A stretch of DNA of 64,000 bases, from positions 28,802-92,801 of the forward strand of contig JBJMGV010000126.1 in NCBI GenBank assembly GCA_045807725.1, given 5' to 3'. This DNA comes from Blastocatellia bacterium. GTDB lineage: Bacteria > Acidobacteriota > Blastocatellia > UBA7656. This document shows, in pieces, positions 16,166-57,802 of this stretch. The stretch's first letter is position 1, and every line of letters starts with the position of its first letter. The notes under the pieces were generated by a model. It ran no database searches and was not told where the DNA came from. It worked only from the letters and a program-made list of their open reading frames with translations. The translations under genes and the position numbers were made by a program.

Positions 16166-16320
16166 TTTTAGATTTTAGATTTTCATGGCTTAGCGCTTCG
16201 CGCCGGCGATTTTGGATTTTAGATTATGGGGAAACAGCATTCAATGAAACCTGAGGCATTCTGCCAATCCAAAATCGGCATCCAAAATCCAAAATTGATG
16301 ATGGCATAGCCCGTGCTTAT
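16166..16320. repeat. Palindromic element with (GATTTTA/GGATTTT) arms
   Basis: tttagattttagatttt...gattttggattttagatt ... aatccaaaatcggcatccaaaatccaaaatt; same family as 2523-2603 and 55751-55865. Confidence 0.6.
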
Positions 16321-19309: not shown

Positions 19310-19437
19310 AATCGCTTCTCGCCATTAAGAATTATGCAGCCATTCACGCCGCTAAGGATTATGCAACCGTTCGCGCCGCTAAGAACTATGCAGCCGTTCG
19401 CGCCGCTAAGGATTATGCAGCCGTTCACGCCGCGTAG
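19310..19437. repeat. 30-bp tandem repeat x4
   Basis: attatgcagccattcacgccgctaagg(a/a)... repeated four times with few substitutions. Confidence 0.75.
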
Positions 19438-19544
19438 CGGCGGGTGAGTTTAGCCAGGCGTTTCAACGCCTGGAAGTCAACGGCGCGGTGATCGCGTCGC
19501 GTCAGCGACGCCTGAATGCCCGCCGATTCAAGCGTCGCTGACGC

Positions 19545-36782: not shown

Positions 36783-36998
36783 CAGAGCGTATCTGAGAAG
36801 CCCTGAAGGGGCGCGATTCAATAGCCCAGCCCAACGGGCTGGGTACACCCAGCGACCATTCGGCAAGCCCTGAAAGGGCGTAATAGGTGATCGGTTATTG
36901 CGCCCTTTCAGGGCTTGGCGGTTAGCCCCGCCGCTCACCCAGGGCGCTGCCCTGGGCTGTCGAATCCCGCCCCTTCAGGGCTTCTCAGATACGCTCTA
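36783..36998. repeat. ~220-bp MITE-like palindromic element, copy A
   Basis: Terminal inverted repeats agagcgtatctgagaagccctgaaggggcg ... cgccccttcagggcttctcagatacgctctatag; internal aagccctgaaagggcg hairpins; about 90% identical to the inverted copy at 53003-53222. Confidence 0.65.
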
Positions 36999-36999
36999 T

Positions 37000-37335
37000 A
37001 GTTCACGATGCAATAGTTGATGCAAGCTCCGTCAGGAGCGCAATGTTTATAGTAACGCGGGCGGTTTAATCTTCAAGCTCCGTCAGGAGCGCGATGTTTA
37101 TAGCCAACGATGCAATAGATCAAACAAGCTCCGTTAGGAGCGCGATGTTCATAGCTCACGATGCCACAGATGATGCAAGCTCCGTTAGGAGCGCAATGTT
37201 TATAGATATGGCAGAAGGATGTGACGAAGCCCCGTAGGGGCGCGATGTTGACATCACGCTCCTGACGGAGCTTGCTTCTTCTATTGCATCGGTAACTATA
37301 AACATTGCGCTCCTGACGGAGCTTGGGGAACTATC
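37000..37335. repeat. ~51-bp tandem repeat array (4-5 units plus inverted units)
   Basis: Unit gatgcaagctccgtcaggagcgcaatgtttatag plus a ~21-bp variable linker; each unit has a gctcc-gtca-ggagc hairpin. Confidence 0.7.
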
Positions 37336-51404: not shown

Positions 51405-52343
51405 ATGAACGATCTTCTTCACATCAATGAAAGAGTGCGCCGCGCGATAGAGACGAATCGAGCCGTGGTGGCGCTTGAGTCAACCGTGATCGCACACGGC
51501 TTGCCGCGCCCGCTCAATCTCGAAACCGCGCACGCCTGCGAAGCCGCCGTGACGCGTGAAGGCGCAAGTCCGGCGACCATCGGCATCGTCGCCGGGCGAT
51601 TGACGGTCGGGTTGAGTGACGAAGAGGTCGCGCGCTTTGGCGACGGGCAAGCGCCGGACGGCGGCGCGATTGAAAAGGTCGGCTTGAATAACATGGCCGG
51701 CGTCATCGAGCGTCGCGCCTGGGGCGCAACTACCGTAGCCGCGACGATGCGGATTGCCGCGCTTGCCGGCCTGCGAGTCTTTGCCACAGGCGGCATCGGC
51801 GGCATTCATCGCGGCGCGGGCGAAACGTTCGACGTATCCGCAGACCTGACTGCGCTCGGTCGCCTGCCGCTGGTCTGCGTCTGCGCCGGCGCGAAAGCGA
51901 TTCTCGATCTACCCAAGACCGTCGAGTACCTGGAAACGCTCGGTGTGCCGATTGTAGGTTATCGCACAAACGAGTTCCCTGCCTTCTACTCCCCGACGAG
52001 CGGCCTCGGCGTAGACATCAAAGTGGATTCGCCGGAAGAAGCCGCCCGTGTGGCGTTGAATCACTGGCGCACGGGTGGCGCGTCGGCAGTGCTGGTCTGC
52101 GCTCCTGTGCCTGAGCCGCACGCGATGGCTCACGAAGAAGTTGACTGCGCTGTCGAGCAAGCCATCGTCTTAGCCGAACGCAGCGGCATTCGCGGCAAAG
52201 CATTAACGCCTTTCCTGCTGGCCCGCTTGAAAGAGTTGACCGCAGGCCACACGCTCGATGCGAATCGCGCCTTGCTCGTGAATAACGCGGAGATCGCCGC
52301 GCAAATTGCCGTGCATCTGGTCAATCTGTCGCGGCAAGGTTGA
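51405..52343 (+). CDS. psuG: Pseudouridine-5'-phosphate glycosidase
   Basis: ...VVALESTVIAHGLPRP...FATGGIGGIHRG... PsuG signature. Confidence 0.9.
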   Translation: MNDLLHINERVRRAIETNRAVVALESTVIAHGLPRPLNLETAHACEAAVTREGASPATIGIVAGRLTVGLSDEEVARFGDGQAPDGGAIEKVGLNNMAGVIERRAWGATTVAATMRIAALAGLRVFATGGIGGIHRGAGETFDVSADLTALGRLPLVCVCAGAKAILDLPKTVEYLETLGVPIVGYRTNEFPAFYSPTSGLGVDIKVDSPEEAARVALNHWRTGGASAVLVCAPVPEPHAMAHEEVDCAVEQAIVLAERSGIRGKALTPFLLARLKELTAGHTLDANRALLVNNAEIAAQIAVHLVNLSRQG

Positions 52344-52911
52344 GCATCATCTGTTCGCCCGCTAACGTGTGCCGCCCGGTCAATCGCTGCTCGTGTTCAA
52401 GCAGCCACTTCTTGCGCCACAGCCCGCCGCCATAGCCGCAGAGGTCGCCATCGGCGCGAATCACTCGATGACAAGGGATGACGATGGCCAGGCAGTTGCG
52501 GCCATTGGCTCGACCGACGGCGCGCACGGCGCGCGGGTTACCGACTTGCTCGGCGAGTTGCAGGTAAGACCACGTCCGGCCCGGTGCAATCGTCTGTAGC
52601 TTTGCCCACACATCGCGCTCAAAGGCTGTGCCGCCGATGACCAGCGGAATCGTAAACGATAGCGAGCGGCCCGCGAAATAATCCTCCAGTTCGCGGCTGA
52701 TCTGATTGAGGTGAGCGTTATTGCCCGGCACAACCTCGCATTGAACGCGCGACTGTATGCCGGTGATCTCACTCTCCAGTTCGCGGCGGTCTACGAATTC
52801 GAGCAGGTGCAGTCCGTCCTGATCGGCTAAGGCGAGCATCGCACCGAGCGGCGTTTCGATTTGACGTGAGTGTAAGCGGGGCGTCGTCGTAGGCGTTGGC
52901 AGCTTGTCCAT
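52321..52911 (-). CDS. ogt: Methylated-DNA--protein-cysteine methyltransferase
   Basis: ...IPCHRVIRADG... active-site PCHR motif; C-terminus overlaps the psuG end convergently. Confidence 0.8.
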   Translation of the reverse strand: MDKLPTPTTTPRLHSRQIETPLGAMLALADQDGLHLLEFVDRRELESEITGIQSRVQCEVVPGNNAHLNQISRELEDYFAGRSLSFTIPLVIGGTAFERDVWAKLQTIAPGRTWSYLQLAEQVGNPRAVRAVGRANGRNCLAIVIPCHRVIRADGDLCGYGGGLWRKKWLLEHEQRLTGRHTLAGEQMMLNLAATD

Positions 52912-52917
52912 AACCGT

Positions 52918-53284
<367 letters not shown>

Positions 53285-53285
<1 letters not shown>

Positions 53286-53313
53286 TTGACAAGCGGCACG
53301 GCTTCACTATAAT
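53285..53313 (+). promoter_or_regulatory. Near-consensus sigma-70 promoter for the CCP-fusion gene
   Basis: TTGACA, a 16-17 nt spacer, TATAAT; followed by a caggagg RBS and ATG at 53363. Confidence 0.55.
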
Positions 53314-53362
53314 CGCTTCACCCAAACGCATCTCGATCAGACGCATCAGGAGGATTGCATCC

Positions 53363-55750
53363 ATGACCGCATCGGCTAGTCCTGCTCCACTGGCAGAGCC
53401 GCGCACGTCTCGGCGACCGCGCCGTCTCTGGCTCAAGGCGTTGTTGACGCTCATCGTTCTACTCGTCATCGGCTTTATCGCGCTCGGCGCGTGGCCTGCG
53501 CCCAAAGACTTCGCTGGCGAAGAAGGACTCACCGGCGTCAACCCTAATGGCGGCGGCCTGCGTCGTCCGTTCCCGGCAATGGTTCTACGCGACGATAACG
53601 ACACCAACAACGCGAAGTTCAAAGAGCGCGCAGAGCTTGGCCGCTTGCTCTTCTTCGATCCGATTCTTTCAGGTGATAACACGATCTCGTGCGCGACCTG
53701 CCATCATCCCGACCTCGGCTTCGGCGATGCGCGCGGGCTGGCGATGGGCAAAGGCGGTCACGGGCTTGGCGTGGAGCGCGCGGGCGGCGCGGACGTGAAG
53801 CGCGGCGCGCCGACAATCTGGAATTCGACTTACAATCACTTGCAATTCTGGGATGGCCGCGCCCGCGACCTCGAAGAACAGGCTGAAGGGCCGATCAAGA
53901 GCGATGTCGAGATGAACGAAAAGCCCGACACGCTGGTCAGCGAGCTAAAGAACATTCCTGACTACACGCAGAAGTTCGACTCGGCCTTCGGCGGCGCGAG
54001 CGGATCGGGCATCACATTTGAAAACGTCACCAAAGCCGTCGCCGCCTTCGAGCGCACGCTGACAGCTAACAACGCGCCGTTTGATCGTTATGCCGCAGGC
54101 GACCGCTCGGCAATAACGGCGGCGCAAGTGCGCGGCTTCGACCTCTTTCGTTCGGGCCGCACGCGTTGCTTCGAGTGTCACGGCATCCCGACGTTTGCCA
54201 ACCGCGACTTCAAGATCGTCGGCGTGCCTGATCTTGATGCGAGTAATCCAGACTACGGTCGCTTCGACGTGACGAAAGGCGAAGGCAACAAGTACGCCTT
54301 CAAAGTGCCGACGCTGCGCAATGTCGTCTTGAATGCGCCGTATATGCACAACGGCGCATTCAAGACGCTCGAAGAAGTGCTCGACTTCTACGCGGCGGGC
54401 GGCGGGCCGGGCGCTGGCTTCAAAGCCGCGAAGGTGGACGACAAGATTCACACCTACTCGATCACGGCGGAAGAGAAGCAAGACCTGATCGCCTTCCTTT
54501 ACGCGCTGGTGGATGAATCGAACCTGCCGCAGTTCCCTGAGCGCGTGCCATCGGGCCTATCGGTCGTGCCGCGCCTTCATAATCCCGCGCGCGATCTGGT
54601 AGCGAAATACAACACCGGCTCTCCGAAAGAAGAGATGGCCAGCCGCGCGCCGCAAACCATCACCGTCAAGTCGGGCGAATCGATTCAAGCGGCGGTCAAC
54701 CGCGCGCGACCGGGCGACACCATCGAAGTGAGGCCCGGCCTCTACCACGAAGAGATCAAGATTGACCTCGACAACATCACGCTCAGGGGAGTGGTTGACG
54801 CAGGGGCAGCATTCAGTAACGCCACCTTGGGTCGCAATAATCCCCCGTCCGCCTGGAAGCCCGATCAGCCTGTGCTCGATGGCGAAAAGAAGTTATCCGA
54901 TGGGGTGCTCACAACTGGCAGCAACTTTACTATCGAAAATTTCACGGTACGGAACTACATCGCCAATGGCGTGGTCGCGCAACACGCCCGCAACGTGACG
55001 TTCCGCAATTTGGAGATTGATACGACGGGACTCTACGGCGTCTACCCTGTCAGTTGCACCGGCGTCGAGATTGATCGTTGCGTGGCGACAGGCATTGCCG
55101 ACGCGGCGCTCTACGTCGGCCAGTCGCGCGACATACGCGTTCACGACAGCGAAGCCTTCGCCAACGTCACCGGCATCGAGATTGAAAACTCGATCAACGC
55201 CATTGTCGAGAACAACTACGTACATGACAACGCGGGCGGCGTACTGGTCTTCGTGCTGCCGAACAATGTCTCGAAGGTCGGGCGCGATTGCGTCGTCCGC
55301 AACAACCGCATCATCGAAAACAACCACGCCAACTTCGGCAATCCGAACGCGATTGTCTCAAACGTGCCGCCCGGCTCAGGCATACTGGTGATGGCAGCGG
55401 ACAACACCGAAGTCACCGGCAACGAGATTCGCGGCAACCAGAGTTACGGCGTGCTGGTGTGCGGCCTCGAAATCGCTTTCCCGAAAGGCACATCGTTCGA
55501 TGTCGGGGCGACGCCGGAAAATACGTTCATCCACGACAACACCTATACCGAAAACGGCAAAGCGCCTTCGGACAAATACAAGGAAGGCGGCATACCGGGA
55601 GCCGATCTGGTCTGGGATTTGTCGGGCTGGTCGAACCGTTGGAGCGAAAGACAGGCGACGCGCGCTACGCCCATCCTGAATGCGAACTGGCCGACCTTTG
55701 CGCGCCGCGCCGAGTGGCGACTGCTGAAGTTGATGGAGAAATACCTGTGA
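53363..55750 (+). CDS. Membrane-anchored di-heme cytochrome c peroxidase (CCP/MauG family) fused to right-handed parallel beta-helix (NosD/pectin-lyase-like) domain
   Basis: ...LFFDPILSGDNTISCATCHHP... and ...RCFECHG... heme motifs; C-terminal beta-helix repeats from ...GDTIEVRPGLYHEEI... onward. Confidence 0.8.
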   Translation: MTASASPAPLAEPRTSRRPRRLWLKALLTLIVLLVIGFIALGAWPAPKDFAGEEGLTGVNPNGGGLRRPFPAMVLRDDNDTNNAKFKERAELGRLLFFDPILSGDNTISCATCHHPDLGFGDARGLAMGKGGHGLGVERAGGADVKRGAPTIWNSTYNHLQFWDGRARDLEEQAEGPIKSDVEMNEKPDTLVSELKNIPDYTQKFDSAFGGASGSGITFENVTKAVAAFERTLTANNAPFDRYAAGDRSAITAAQVRGFDLFRSGRTRCFECHGIPTFANRDFKIVGVPDLDASNPDYGRFDVTKGEGNKYAFKVPTLRNVVLNAPYMHNGAFKTLEEVLDFYAAGGGPGAGFKAAKVDDKIHTYSITAEEKQDLIAFLYALVDESNLPQFPERVPSGLSVVPRLHNPARDLVAKYNTGSPKEEMASRAPQTITVKSGESIQAAVNRARPGDTIEVRPGLYHEEIKIDLDNITLRGVVDAGAAFSNATLGRNNPPSAWKPDQPVLDGEKKLSDGVLTTGSNFTIENFTVRNYIANGVVAQHARNVTFRNLEIDTTGLYGVYPVSCTGVEIDRCVATGIADAALYVGQSRDIRVHDSEAFANVTGIEIENSINAIVENNYVHDNAGGVLVFVLPNNVSKVGRDCVVRNNRIIENNHANFGNPNAIVSNVPPGSGILVMAADNTEVTGNEIRGNQSYGVLVCGLEIAFPKGTSFDVGATPENTFIHDNTYTENGKAPSDKYKEGGIPGADLVWDLSGWSNRWSERQATRATPILNANWPTFARRAEWRLLKLMEKYL

Positions 55751-55865
55751 CGATTTTGGATTTTAGTTTTTGGATTGACGGAGAGCCGCAGGGATAGCCG
55801 AGGGCGATTTCCCTTAATCCAAAATCGCCGGCGCGAAGCGCTAAGCTATGAAAATCTAAAATCTG
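55751..55865. repeat. Palindromic element with (GATTTTGGATT) arms
   Basis: cgattttggattttagtttttggatt ... aatccaaaatcgcc ... aaaatctaaaatc. Confidence 0.6.
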
Positions 55866-55873
55866 GAGAATTC

Positions 55874-56755
55874 ATGTCGAAAGCTACTGCCGCCGTCGAA
55901 GCTGTCGAAGCAACCGAACAACCATCCAACGCGGTGCTCGCCGCGCCGCTTGCAGGCGCGTGTTTGGCCGAGTTCATCGGCACGTTCGTCGTCATTCTCG
56001 TTGGCGATGGCGCGGTCGCGGCGGCGGTCTTTGCCGGTGCGATTGATGGCTGGGGCGTCGCCGTGTTGTGGGGCCTAGCGGTGACGTTCGGCATCTATGT
56101 CGCCGGGCCGGTGTCGGGCGCACACTTCAACCCGGCAGTGACCATCACGATGGCGCTGTTTCGCGGCTTCCCGGCCAAACGTATTTTGCCTTACATTTTC
56201 AGCCAGATCGTCGGAGCGTTCACCGCAGCGGCCTGCGTCTACTGGCTGTGGCACGGCTTCTGGCAAGCGACGGCGGAAAAGCTCGGCGTCACGATAGGCG
56301 AGCCGGGCAGCCAAAAACTGATGGCCGTCTTTTCGTGCTTCTATCCCAATCCCGGCGGCATCGGTGTTGACGCGGCGGCGATGGCGAAGGTCAGCGCGCC
56401 GGGCGCGTTCTTTGTCGAAGTCGTGCTGACGGCCTTTCTCTTGCTGATGATCTTCGCGTTGACGGAGCCGGACAATCCCGGTTTGCCGCAGGCGGGGCTG
56501 GGGCCGATCTTCATCGGGTTGACGGTGACGGCCATCGTCGGCATCGGCGGCGCGTTGACAATGGATGCGGTGAACCCTGTGCGTGATTTCGGGCCGCGTC
56601 TGTTTGCGTATGTCGCGGGCTTCGGCCAGATCGCCTTCCCCGGCCCGCGCGGCAATGAATGGTGGCTCTACATCGTCGCGCCGATCATCGGCGGTCCGCT
56701 CGGCGCTGCCGGCTACAAGTACCTCGTGCGCCGCTTCCTGCCGGCGACGAATTAG
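55874..56755 (+). CDS. MIP-family channel (aquaporin/aquaglyceroporin)
   Basis: Six TM helices; HFNPAVT first NPA box; ...AVNPVRDFGPRL second box (NPV variant). Confidence 0.85.
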   Translation: MSKATAAVEAVEATEQPSNAVLAAPLAGACLAEFIGTFVVILVGDGAVAAAVFAGAIDGWGVAVLWGLAVTFGIYVAGPVSGAHFNPAVTITMALFRGFPAKRILPYIFSQIVGAFTAAACVYWLWHGFWQATAEKLGVTIGEPGSQKLMAVFSCFYPNPGGIGVDAAAMAKVSAPGAFFVEVVLTAFLLLMIFALTEPDNPGLPQAGLGPIFIGLTVTAIVGIGGALTMDAVNPVRDFGPRLFAYVAGFGQIAFPGPRGNEWWLYIVAPIIGGPLGAAGYKYLVRRFLPATN

Positions 56756-56973
56756 CCGCGCTATAGTCCCGACATTTAGTAGGCAGACTCCAACACCCGT
56801 GGGCAGGACTCTGCCTGATGGGCGCGGTCTATTTCATCTTCCGTTCGCAGTGACGGAGGCGGTCGGCTTGCGCGGCGCGGGAACGGCTGCGGGGTGGCCG
56901 GGGTTCGATTCAGCCCGAAGCGTTTGTGATGAATGATACGTTAACGCAATGCTGGCGACGAGACATGCGGCAG

Positions 56974-57384
56974 TTAGTTTTTGAAGAGCTTATCGAAAGC
57001 CGAGCGCGGATCTTTCATCGCCGAGGTCGCTGTCGTCGTTTCGCGCTCGATGGTCTTGCGCGGCTCGAACACAGCACAAACATTGCGCTCGTCTTTTTTG
57101 ACGACGCGTTCGGTGATCGGCTTGCGACACTGAAAGCGCGCGCCGGGATCAAAGCTCACGCAGTTCTTACAGGTGCGCAGATCGGTGTTGCATTTCGGGC
57201 ATTGCTGATCGAGGGCGATGCCGCCGACCTCGATGTTGATCATCTGGCCGCAGAGGTTGCAGCGCGTCACTTCGCGGAAGGCCGGCATCTTTGGCGCGCG
57301 TATGTCACTTTTTTGCGGAGCCGGGCGCGACCTCTGCTCCTGGCCATCATCTTGATAGCCACGCTGTTTATACTTTCTGTCCAT
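56974..57384 (-). CDS. Hypothetical basic protein with double Zn-ribbon (CxxC x4)
   Basis: ...CNLCGQ...CPKCNTDLRTCKNC...; ATG at 57384 with an AGGAGA RBS. Confidence 0.5.
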   Translation of the reverse strand: MDRKYKQRGYQDDGQEQRSRPAPQKSDIRAPKMPAFREVTRCNLCGQMINIEVGGIALDQQCPKCNTDLRTCKNCVSFDPGARFQCRKPITERVVKKDERNVCAVFEPRKTIERETTTATSAMKDPRSAFDKLFKN

Positions 57385-57802
57385 AGAAATCTCCTGTTTG
57401 ATTACAACAGACCTTGATTTTCCTGAGTCTGTGATGAGTCGGTCAGTTGGTAAAGCAAGTCGTCTGCCGCAGTCCGAGAGGCTCTCGGCTATTGTCACTG
57501 AGTGAACCTGATTTGTTCGGGAGTTCCAAGATCGAATCAATGTGACATTATCGTTATACATCATCGGCACGCGGTAAGCAACGGAAATCGGCTAAAGCGA
57601 TGCCCTCAATCGTGATTTCGCTTTACTCTAATGCAGCGCGGCGCGTCGGTAAAATAGGCTGCACAGCGGAAGCCATACGGTCGCTTGTCATACCTGTTGG
57701 CGTAGGCGTCCACATTATCGCCTCATCGGATTGATTAAACGTCACGTCTTGACTAAGGTTCAGTTAGGTTGCGCCGGCGCGGCGGCTTGTTGAACTTGCC
57801 GC

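Follow-up and report, generated by a model that had tools for sequence, protein, structure and literature searches.

Di-heme enzymes of the MauG type are distinguished by an unusual long-range oxidation of proteins, and to our knowledge only three of them, MauG, MbnH and BthA, have assigned or partly assigned roles. MauG of Paracoccus denitrificans (PDB 3L4M) is a tryptophan tryptophylquinone maturase, and MbnH (PDB 6E1C) forms kynurenine in the copper protein MbnP. Both oxidise a partner protein encoded nearby (PMC11951088). MauG-type enzymes are conventionally told apart from canonical scavenging ones by heme ligation, His/Tyr in the first and His/Met in the second; the MauG-type hemes have a low potential and form a bis-Fe(IV) oxidant, and the enzymes perform poorly as peroxidases (PMC11892367; PMC6405878). 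Here we describe a locus of a Blastocatellia bacterium, an acidobacterium from soil, located in a stretch of 64,000 nucleotides (nt) of contig JBJMGV010000126.1 (assembly GCA_045807725.1; this whole stretch is the window, and coordinates count from its first letter), in which one gene joins a di-heme domain of the CCP_MauG family to a right-handed parallel beta-helix and is followed by a gene of the MIP channel family. The architecture is already visible in databases, yet without characterisation. What is new is the assignment of the di-heme domain to the MauG type, the apparently obligate partnership between di-heme domain and beta-helix, the reciprocal, clade-specific link to a MIP channel with a derived selectivity filter, and a convergent pair of di-heme and MIP genes in Nitrospirae. 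The two genes and the parts of the first product are the following.

53363..55750, + strand: fusion gene, a single unbroken open reading frame (ORF) of 795 residues with an N-terminal hydrophobic helix, a MauG-type di-heme domain, a TIGR03805 beta-helix and a C-terminal helix
53420..53494, + strand: N-terminal residues 20-44, Arg-rich at first and then forming a hydrophobic helix of 23 residues, a signal anchor or possibly a signal peptide that looks uncleaved, sequence RRLWLKALLTLIVLLVIGFIALGAWP
53606..54562, + strand: di-heme CCP/MauG domain, residues ~82-400, including an MbnH-like C-terminal extension (PF03150, E 1e-54)
53690..53704, + strand: heme motif 1, C110-A-T-C-H114, of the peroxidatic heme
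54167..54181, + strand: heme motif 2, C269-F-E-C-H273, of the six-coordinate electron-transfer heme
54389..54391, + strand: codon TAC of Tyr343, predicted sixth ligand of heme 2, MauG-type His/Tyr
54683..55579, + strand: right-handed parallel beta-helix, residues 441-739, with conserved polar motifs on successive coils
55874..56755, + strand: MIP gene, ATG start, 293 residues (PF00230, E 4e-42)

Both exact proteins are annotated at NCBI under consecutive accessions of a Blastocatellia metagenome-assembled genome (MAG), as MFL6216493.1 (795 residues, 'parallel beta-helix domain-containing protein') and MFL6216494.1 (293 residues, 'MIP/aquaporin family protein'). Pfam analysis of the first reports CCP_MauG (residues 88-248, E 1e-54), Beta_helix (residues 515-647) and NosD (residues 523-699). 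The closest PDB entry for the di-heme half is Geobacter CcpA/MacA (E 1.5e-56), followed by MbnH (E 1.9e-40) and MauG (E ~1e-25). With the canonical bacterial cytochrome c peroxidases (bCCPs) from Geobacter (CcpA/MacA), Pseudomonas and Shewanella it thus shares its highest similarity, about 30-35% identity, together with the fold and the peroxidatic pocket. It differs from them by a Tyr in place of Met, by a distal His loop that is not conserved, by the additional 400-residue beta-helix, and by the lack of any sign of dedicated high-potential donors in its operon.

The assignment to the MauG type turns on Tyr343. In the alignment, the segment 'PYMHNGAFKTLEEVLDFY343' of the fusion faces 'PYMHNGVFTDLRTAILFY294' of MauG and 'VIDIY' of MbnH, and the same column in the Shewanella bCCP ('EEAVNTM') holds the ligand Met in place of Tyr343. 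The residue is invariant in 36 out of 36 fused, split and stand-alone relatives. Because Tyr343 replaces the ligand Met of the bCCPs, the domain is predicted to be a MauG-type oxidant generator and not a canonical scavenger, and membership in the canonical bCCPs was rejected on the Tyr found in the Met ligand column. The inter-heme W163 and the distal-pocket residues Q173, P177 and E183, whose bCCP equivalence comes from the alignment to Geobacter CcpA ('FWDGRA...EQA.GP....VEM'), are also invariant in a 38-sequence alignment, and peroxide activation should therefore be intact. H133, the counterpart of the distal His of activatable bCCPs, is not conserved. Judged by its residues, the fusion belongs to the MauG-type class, having two CxxCH motifs within PF03150, a Tyr aligned to the ligand position, an inter-heme Trp and the distal Gln, Pro and Glu.

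Within this class, the fusion would work most like MauG and MbnH, but it is neither of them proper. As in MauG, a PF03150 di-heme domain with predicted His/Tyr ligation (Tyr294 corresponding to Tyr343), an inter-heme Trp and distal Gln/Pro/Glu is found, H2O2 would be the oxidant, and a protein partner is encoded beside it. In contrast with MauG, the beta-helix partner is fused and lacks an invariant Trp pair, an N-terminal membrane helix is present, and a Gly takes the place of the Ca-site Asn. NCBIfam analysis of the di-heme half returns 218.5 bits with the MauG family TIGR03791 (cutoff 443.85) and 221.5 bits with the MbnH family TIGR04039 (cutoff 362.85), the latter being the best NCBIfam match. 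MauG proper was rejected on this score and on the lack of mau genes, the neighbours being ogt, psuG, the MIP gene and a gene for a Cys-rich protein. MbnH resembles the fusion most in the C-terminal 90 residues of the di-heme domain (6e1c, E 3.5e-15, against 1e-5 for other structures), which include the motifs 'FY..GG' and 'LTDES'. Membership in the MbnH family was likewise rejected, no MbnP-like gene having been found among the neighbours examined, here or in related loci. The partner of the fusion differs in fold from MbnP, and the adjacent genes examined included none for methanobactin.

The same domain might instead serve peroxide detoxification or respiration, in which the MIP would export cytoplasmic H2O2, periplasmic carriers or the quinone pool would supply the electrons with which the di-heme domain reduces this H2O2 to water, and the beta-helix would be a mere scaffold or anchor. 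The overall similarity to true peroxidases and the intact peroxidatic pocket agree with this, the classical bCCP donors (cytochromes c, cupredoxin) adjoin related systems, and the N-terminal anchor resembles those of membrane-bound peroxidases, of which E. coli YhjA is an example. In addition, Tyr-ligated BthA still has peroxidase activity (PMC6405878), and H2O2-exporting bacterial peroxiporins exist (PMC6912568). However, with Tyr as its ligand heme 2 would have a much lower potential than donors such as cytochrome c or cupredoxin, and MauG-type enzymes are generally poor peroxidases (PMC11892367). Nor does detoxification give any role to an invariably paired beta-helix with a conserved polar groove, the 795-residue fusion contains no third, quinol-oxidising heme motif, and the MIP is absent from most family members. 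We consider it doubtful. Of the two functional ideas put forward in the sequence-only reading of this locus (a model's note made from the letters and their ORFs), the headline one, peroxide export and reduction, consequently fits less well than the other, a MauG-like di-heme domain acting on a substrate held by the beta-helix, because heme 2 carries Tyr as in MauG, MbnH and BthA and the beta-helix is an obligate partner.

The beta-helix half (residues 441-739) is a member of TIGR03805 (beta_helix_1; 228.7 bits, cutoff 141.5), to which a split beta-helix homologue from locus L045 also aligns with 173.9 bits. TIGR03805 proteins are encoded in pairs with, and in some cases fused to, di-heme c-type cytochromes of the family TIGR03806 / SO2930. 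The fusion is like these proteins in passing the cutoff, in having a di-heme cytochrome c partner and in the export of both, and unlike them in that the partner belongs to the CCP_MauG family, TIGR03806 giving no match. Since the function of TIGR03805 is not known, membership in it explains nothing of the mechanism. The earlier label 'NosD/pectin-lyase-like' is apt at the level of the fold but not at that of the family: NosD (TIGR04247) returns 38.4 bits for a cutoff of 300 and was rejected, none of the adjacent genes examined being a nos gene, and the structure of NosD (PDB 7O0Y), which acts in NosDFY-dependent N2O-reductase maturation, is 12% identical, with no nosF, nosY or nosZ among the genes examined beside the operon.

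Conserved motifs are distributed along the beta-helix as TGLY558GVYP, GIAD580AALY584VGQS588, GIE606IE608N, YVH621D622N, K638 and NNxxNF, and the polar residues kept in fused and split members alike are TG(L/V)Y558G..P, D580AA.Y584.G.S588, GIE606.E608N, (H621 D622)N623, K638 and N653 N654..N657. Because these residues recur at the same position of five successive coils, we infer that they form one polar stripe or groove, as in beta-helix enzymes. A model of this domain, built from a mixed fused/split alignment (pLDDT 81.8, pTM 0.82), finds alginate epimerases/lyases as its best structural neighbours, followed by RbmB, rhamnogalacturonan lyase, and the PL31 and PL6 lyases. A sequence-profile search against the PDB returns only an N-terminal cap motif and a marginal AlgE4 match, and no significant sequence match with a CAZy-type family was obtained. 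Among the mannuronan C5-epimerases and alginate lyases compared (AlgE4 2PYG, 8JA4, PL31 6KFN, PL6), the sub-profile match reaches E 4e-5, but the AlgE4 tetrad is not kept. An AlgE4-type active site was rejected on this ground: Y149, D152, H154 and D178 of AlgE4 align to N535, V538, a gap before A539, and V563, none of which is conserved.

With such neighbours, one might assume, by analogy with the di-heme rubber oxygenase RoxA, that the beta-helix binds or processes a polymer, perhaps an acidic polysaccharide, with the di-heme domain supplying the oxidative chemistry and the GlpF-like MIP importing a small neutral product rather than peroxide. Apart from the nearest structures (alginate epimerases/lyases, RbmB, PL6/PL31 lyases), the alignment of the conserved Tyr, Asp, Glu, Lys and Asn residues on successive coils, as in beta-helix enzymes, points this way. 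So do a weak RoxA-like Pfam match, the genes for TonB-dependent receptors, a polysaccharide deacetylase and a CotH protein secreted by the type IX secretion system (T9SS) that adjoin the system in other phyla, and the polyol or sugar contexts of MIP relatives, one of which lies behind a pyrroloquinoline quinone (PQQ)-type sugar dehydrogenase. Polymer processing nevertheless appears unlikely, considering that the AlgE4 catalytic residues are not conserved and no CAZy-type family is matched significantly, that an inner-membrane tether would keep the enzyme in the periplasm, apart from extracellular polymers, and that the neighbours vary from phylum to phylum.

The joining of the two domains in one gene, which the sequence-only reading had proposed, is genuine. 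All of the best 120 database clusters (120/120) span the whole protein, at 69-89% identity, and combine the same Pfam domains. The homologue clusters are drawn from independent JGI, ENA, NCBI and Logan assemblies, the architecture (775-820 residues) recurs in more than 100 clusters, including long-read MAG contigs of up to 7.9 Mb, and the linker and both domains are continuously conserved in the 38-sequence alignment. An assembly or frameshift artefact joining two genes has in its favour solely that the window comes from a MAG. More than 100 full-length homologue clusters from four assembly sources, together with the continuous conservation of linker and domains, rule out a frameshift or chimera, and its probability is negligible. 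An exhaustive search of 50%-identity representatives gives about eight full-length clusters and many single-domain relatives. In species-representative genomes, the fused gene is found in Blastocatellia and other Acidobacteriota, Chloroflexota, Marinimicrobia, Hydrogenedentota, Nitrospirales and Thermoanaerobaculia, and its two halves occur as adjacent genes in Gammaproteobacteria (Woeseiaceae, Steroidobacteraceae, Microbulbifer, Reinekea) and Bacteroidetes.

In these Gammaproteobacterial and Bacteroidetes pairs, the first gene encodes a di-heme protein of ~400 residues, and the second a TIGR03805 beta-helix of ~500 residues that ends in a monoheme cytochrome c domain. Adjacent di-heme and beta-helix genes were found in loci L043-L051, L058, L151, L153 and L156. 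The stand-alone beta-helix relatives, of which three were sampled at random (P0149, P0159, P0170), all have a CCP_MauG gene directly upstream, one of them lying behind a fused gene and another being followed by cupredoxin and MsrAB genes. Out of four stand-alone di-heme relatives sampled, one (P0146) has a beta-helix gene downstream. In a neighbour-joining tree all fused proteins form one clade and the split pairs another, the stand-alone proteins falling outside. On this comparative evidence, the pairing of di-heme domain and beta-helix, whether fused or adjacent, is an obligate partnership, that is, a Rosetta-stone relationship. Outside Blastocatellia, no conserved neighbour of the fused genes was common to the phyla examined. 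Nothing relevant was found in the literature searched on a beta-helix paired with CCP/MauG, on TIGR03805 or on SO2930/2931.

Several arrangements of the related loci may be recorded here. In the split Gammaproteobacterial loci (L045 6991-8487, L058 7984-9459, P0271-P0390), the beta-helix protein ends in a CxxCH monoheme cytochrome c, a c4-like di-heme cytochrome gene lies upstream of the pair, and a gene for a TonB-dependent receptor or an aldehyde dehydrogenase lies downstream. The receptor gene follows the pair as MbnT does in mbn operons, a further likeness to MbnH. This split form is very abundant in marine metagenomes. Locus L156 (GCA_040960375.1) has the order CCP_MauG, beta-helix, cupredoxin, MsrA/MsrB; in L152 another beta-helix gene, standing alone, comes after the fused one; and in L039 a monoheme cytochrome c gene lies 65 nt 5' of the fusion.

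The MIP gene lies directly downstream of the fusion on the same strand, as had been noted from the letters, the spacer from the fusion stop to the MIP ATG being 123 nt. A longer MIP ORF with a TTG start at 55775 was rejected as an ORF-caller artefact. A sequence scan of the spacer finds no internal promoter or terminator on the + strand, and the two genes probably form an operon, as their common strand, short spacer and kept adjacency suggest. The closest PDB entry for the channel is E. coli GlpF (E 1e-50). The MIP is GlpF-derived. Features that it has in common with GlpF are Trp48, Arg206 and the Asp behind the second Asn-Pro; it was also compared with bacterial peroxiporins (So-AqpA, Lactobacillus GlpF1-4), a class for which there is no known sequence signature. 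It departs from GlpF in its selectivity filter, W-V-D-R (W-G-F-R in GlpF) with Arg at the GlpF-206 position, in its motifs, NPA and NPV, and in being linked to a di-heme enzyme and not to a glycerol kinase; the GlpF and AqpZ sequences used as numbering references gave the textbook filter residues. Membership in the GlpF-type aquaglyceroporins (filter Trp48/Gly191/Phe200/Arg206) was rejected: the GlpF-type family TIGR00861 scores 165.5 bits, below its cutoff of 171.25, the filter differs, and the gene follows the di-heme fusion, not glpK.

A same-strand MIP gene lies directly downstream in 19 out of 24 close fusions (at least 60% identity, with at least 1 kb of downstream sequence). Conversely, a metagenome scan with the MIP yielded 41 orthologues (at least 69% identity, with readable upstream DNA), and each of the 41 is directly preceded by the fusion, at a distance of 7-655 nt. 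The W-V-D-R filter and NPV are strictly kept in all fusion-linked orthologues, and unlinked relatives at 56-59% identity have a W-V-A-R filter and NPA. No fusion is found upstream of MIPs at 56-67% identity. The spacer is as short as 7-21 nt in relatives, and the block of fusion, MIP and Cys-rich genes is kept where the upstream genes differ (L010, L015, L017). The MIP link is therefore tight, at the level of gene order, and specific to one clade. As a separate observation, locus L123 (2073-4604) contains a 67% identical MIP with the same W-V-D-R/NPV signature behind an 843-residue GSDH protein, a PQQ-type sugar dehydrogenase with PKD and dockerin domains. Here, too, an exported redox enzyme precedes a channel of this type.

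A second, independent pairing is found in Nitrospirae, where eight loci (L053-L057, L060, L064, L065) contain a stand-alone Tyr-type di-heme gene followed directly by a MIP gene. The di-heme protein is 44-45% identical to the di-heme domain of the window, and the MIP (217-229 residues) is of another kind, its best PDB match being the ammonia-permeable plant TIP2;1 (E 2.5e-42) and its filter H-I-A-R. TIP- and AQP8-type filters go with H2O2 and ammonia permeation. It is hard to ascribe to chance that two unrelated MIP types stand beside related di-heme genes. The Nitrospirae pairing lends indirect support to the suggestion of the sequence-only reading that the MIP may handle H2O2. The Nitrospirae loci also have an RmlC-like cupin gene upstream and a QueD/PTPS-like gene downstream of the pair. 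Literature searches on a CCP-aquaporin operon, or on Nitrospira with a CCP and an aquaporin, found nothing relevant.

Could the adjacency be gene order inherited without any functional coupling, the fusion working alone and the channel being an ordinary glycerol/water facilitator that shares its transcript by accident? The link is confined to one Blastocatellia clade with syntenic flanks (psuG upstream; the Cys-rich gene and two membrane-protein genes downstream), MIP-less fusions nest inside the MIP clade, and the four stand-alone di-heme relatives sampled have no MIP beside them (0/4). Against inherited order stand the reciprocal link in 41 out of 41 cases, its persistence where upstream neighbours change, spacers down to 7-21 nt, the specific derived filter of the linked MIPs, and the second, unrelated MIP type joined to a related di-heme gene in Nitrospirae; the arrangement is also unlikely by chance at roughly one MIP gene per genome. 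This leaves inherited order quite improbable.

Taken as a whole, the reading that we prefer, a periplasmic, inner-membrane-tethered MauG-type oxidant generator fused to a partner beta-helix, with a co-operonic channel passing H2O2 or a small neutral product, has in our estimate an even chance of being right. The fusion would face the periplasm and would probably be tethered to the inner membrane. Its hydrophobic segment of 23 residues, LWLKALLTLIVLLVIGFIALGAW, is preceded by an Arg-rich stretch and modelled by AlphaFold as a helix (residues 20-43), and the following W44 and P45 are nearly invariant or invariant across the family in the 38-sequence alignment. From these features a membrane anchor is plausible, as had been claimed; the segment may possibly be a signal peptide cleaved after 'ALG'. 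By family resemblance, H2O2 would bind the five-coordinate N-terminal heme in the intact Gln173/Pro177/Glu183 pocket, and the oxidising equivalents would be shared via Trp163 with heme 2 (His/Tyr343) to give a bis-Fe(IV)-type oxidant. This long-lived oxidant could draw electrons by hole hopping, either from amino acids of the beta-helix itself or from a ligand bound in the conserved polar groove of that domain, where the candidates are Tyr558, Asp580, Tyr584, Glu606/608, His621/Asp622 and Lys638. The MIP, beside the enzyme in the inner membrane, would most likely pass H2O2 between cytoplasm and periplasm, its alternative cargo being a small neutral reaction product. Of the two, H2O2 suggests itself, as it is the sole co-substrate common to all family members, and AQP8 and bacterial MIPs, including GlpF-type channels, are H2O2 conduits (PMC6912568). 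High-valent state formation, the oxidised target, the membrane topology and the channel cargo are the parts of this scheme that we infer.

Several observations weigh against this reading. In the di-heme domain, the Ca-site Asn of MauG and bCCP is replaced by Gly148. The beta-helix contains no invariant Trp or Cys in the family alignment, so that a target like the tryptophan tryptophylquinone or cysteine tryptophylquinone cofactors (TTQ/CTQ), or a kynurenine-like one, is not evident. A substrate fused to its modifying enzyme would, besides, turn over once only. The full-length AlphaFold model has a pLDDT of 55.7, with less than 50 in the di-heme half, and for this reason no interdomain interface can be read from it. 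In several lineages the di-heme/beta-helix pair is accompanied by small electron carriers, be it the cytochrome c domain that the split beta-helix bears, a cupredoxin, or a c4-like or monoheme cytochrome c, and they fit an ordinary donor-to-peroxidase cycle equally well. As to the channel, the MIP is missing in 5 out of 24 close fusions (L014, L016, L019, L020, L022), which are nested within the same clade, and is found in 0 out of 30 distant fused or split loci. The co-conservation of fusion and MIP that the sequence-only reading counted on thus extends over the Blastocatellia clade (19/24; 41/41) but not to the distant and split systems (0/30), and since the MIP is missing from 5/24 close and 30/30 distant or split systems, it is not required for the core function of the enzyme. 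Finally, the nearest unlinked relatives of the MIP (56-59% identity) adjoin polyol-metabolism genes, namely those for an FGGY kinase (fragment), an aldo/keto reductase and a Zn-dependent alcohol dehydrogenase, and they point to a polyol-type cargo for the MIP lineage; among the unlinked MIPs at 56-67% identity, the gene for a PQQ-type sugar dehydrogenase also occurs as a neighbour.

A bolder version of the preferred reading, which we hold to be improbable, would make the locus a self-contained periplasmic oxidation machine, in which a dedicated peroxiporin feeds cytoplasmic H2O2 to the MauG-type di-heme domain. The bis-Fe(IV) state may then install a protein-derived redox cofactor, for instance a Tyr-derived one at the invariant Tyr558/Tyr584/Lys638 stripe. 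If true, the beta-helix would be a new quinoprotein-like oxidoreductase, and this would account for the cytochrome c and cupredoxin partners found elsewhere. Otherwise, the oxidant may attack a polymer lying in the beta-helix groove, as a heme-based counterpart, by analogy, of the copper-dependent lytic polysaccharide monooxygenases (LPMOs). With either version, the Nitrospirae pair of a di-heme gene and a TIP-like MIP would imply that channel-fed peroxide is general for MauG-type enzymes.

The expression signals and repeats of the two-gene unit are as follows.

53286..53313, + strand: sigma-70-type promoter, TTGACA at 53286-53291, 16-nt spacer, TATAAT at 53308-53313, 12/12 consensus positions
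53348..53353, + strand: ribosome-binding site AGGAGG, 9 nt 5' of the ATG
55751..55863, no strand assigned: spacer palindrome of nested inverted repeats, arms CGATTTTGGATT / AATCCAAAATCG and others
56781..56834, + strand: hairpin and weak terminator-like site, arms 56781-56791 / 56806-56816, site 56812-56824 with a T-rich tail

The upstream promoter is real, as the sequence-only reading had it, and a strong one that would drive both genes. The pattern TTGAC[ATG]-16-TATAAT is kept 60-100 nt 5' of the start codon in nearly all Blastocatellia orthologues, and because hexamers and spacing are kept while the flanking sequence diverges, the promoter is conserved and not a chance match. In the orthologue alignment GGAGG of the ribosome-binding site is also kept, and across the clade only these two elements of the 5' leader are, no conserved operator being found. 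No riboswitch or known RNA was found in leader or spacer, the sole Rfam matches being Acido-Lenti-1 motifs in the upstream repeat. The hairpin and terminator-like site behind the MIP gene likely marks the end of the two-gene transcript, to judge from its position and T-rich tail.

The palindromic element between the two genes, which had also been remarked on, consists of real nested inverted repeats (RNA fold of -44 kcal/mol, z -2.45) but is a dispersed repeat, mobile or resembling repetitive extragenic palindromic (REP) elements, and not a dedicated control site. The family, marked by the arms CGATTTTGGATT / AATCCAAAATCG (perfect over up to 26 nt), has further copies in the window, at 2523-2603 and at 16207-16295. 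The closest relative, L113, is devoid of the palindrome and has a 15-nt spacer with a ribosome-binding site; another relative, L078, carries a similar palindrome insertion (L078 4845-4985). An operon-specific regulator or terminator is ruled out by the dispersed copies, by the absence in the nearest relative and by the lack of a T-tract, and the palindrome is best read, from its distribution, as a REP-like repeat insertion tolerated within the operon.

A different repeat, self-complementary, dispersed and ~215 nt long, lies at 53009-53227, just 5' of the promoter, with a second copy at 36784-37001 (84% identity). Each copy contains inverted pairs of the Rfam motif Acido-Lenti-1 (RF01687; 39-41 bits, gathering score 37), a single motif lies at 19428-19473 of the window, and the repeat core GCCCTGAARGGGCGC occurs 13 times in the window where 0.64 occurrences are expected. 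Since its copies are repeated and inverted-paired, the Acido-Lenti-1 'RNA' of this genome looks like a part of an element resembling a miniature inverted-repeat transposable element (MITE) or a REP element, not like a small RNA (sRNA) gene. The ~215-nt repeat is flanked by inverted arms of the (AATGATGAA)n type at 52924-52961 and 53244-53275 (31 nt, 94% complementary), and these arms between ogt and the promoter may be the termini of the element or a duplicated target.

The genes surrounding the operon are the following.

51405-52343, + strand: PsuG-like pseudouridine glycosidase, upstream neighbour
52321-52911, - strand: Ogt/MGMT DNA-repair methyltransferase, upstream neighbour, divergent from the operon
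56974-57570, - strand: conserved Cys-rich protein, convergent with the MIP gene, with three CxxC pairs and a 136-residue core

The psuG-like and ogt genes are convergent and overlap by 23 nt. The Cys-rich protein (56974-57570) matches no Pfam or NCBIfam family, and its gene stands 3' of the MIP in nearly every Blastocatellia locus, also where the upstream genes are different.

The locus defines a large and phylogenetically broad branch of MauG-type enzymes. Because the beta-helix is fused to the di-heme domain, the partner is unambiguous and the question of the substrate becomes directly approachable. The reciprocal link to a remodelled aquaporin, together with the recurrence of a di-heme/MIP pair in Nitrospirae, offers a testable answer to the question of where periplasmic H2O2-dependent oxidants obtain their peroxide in vivo. 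Acidobacteria of soils and Gammaproteobacteria of the sea have the family in abundance, so that in these habitats its chemistry may have a bearing on redox processes in the periplasm or on the turnover of polymers.

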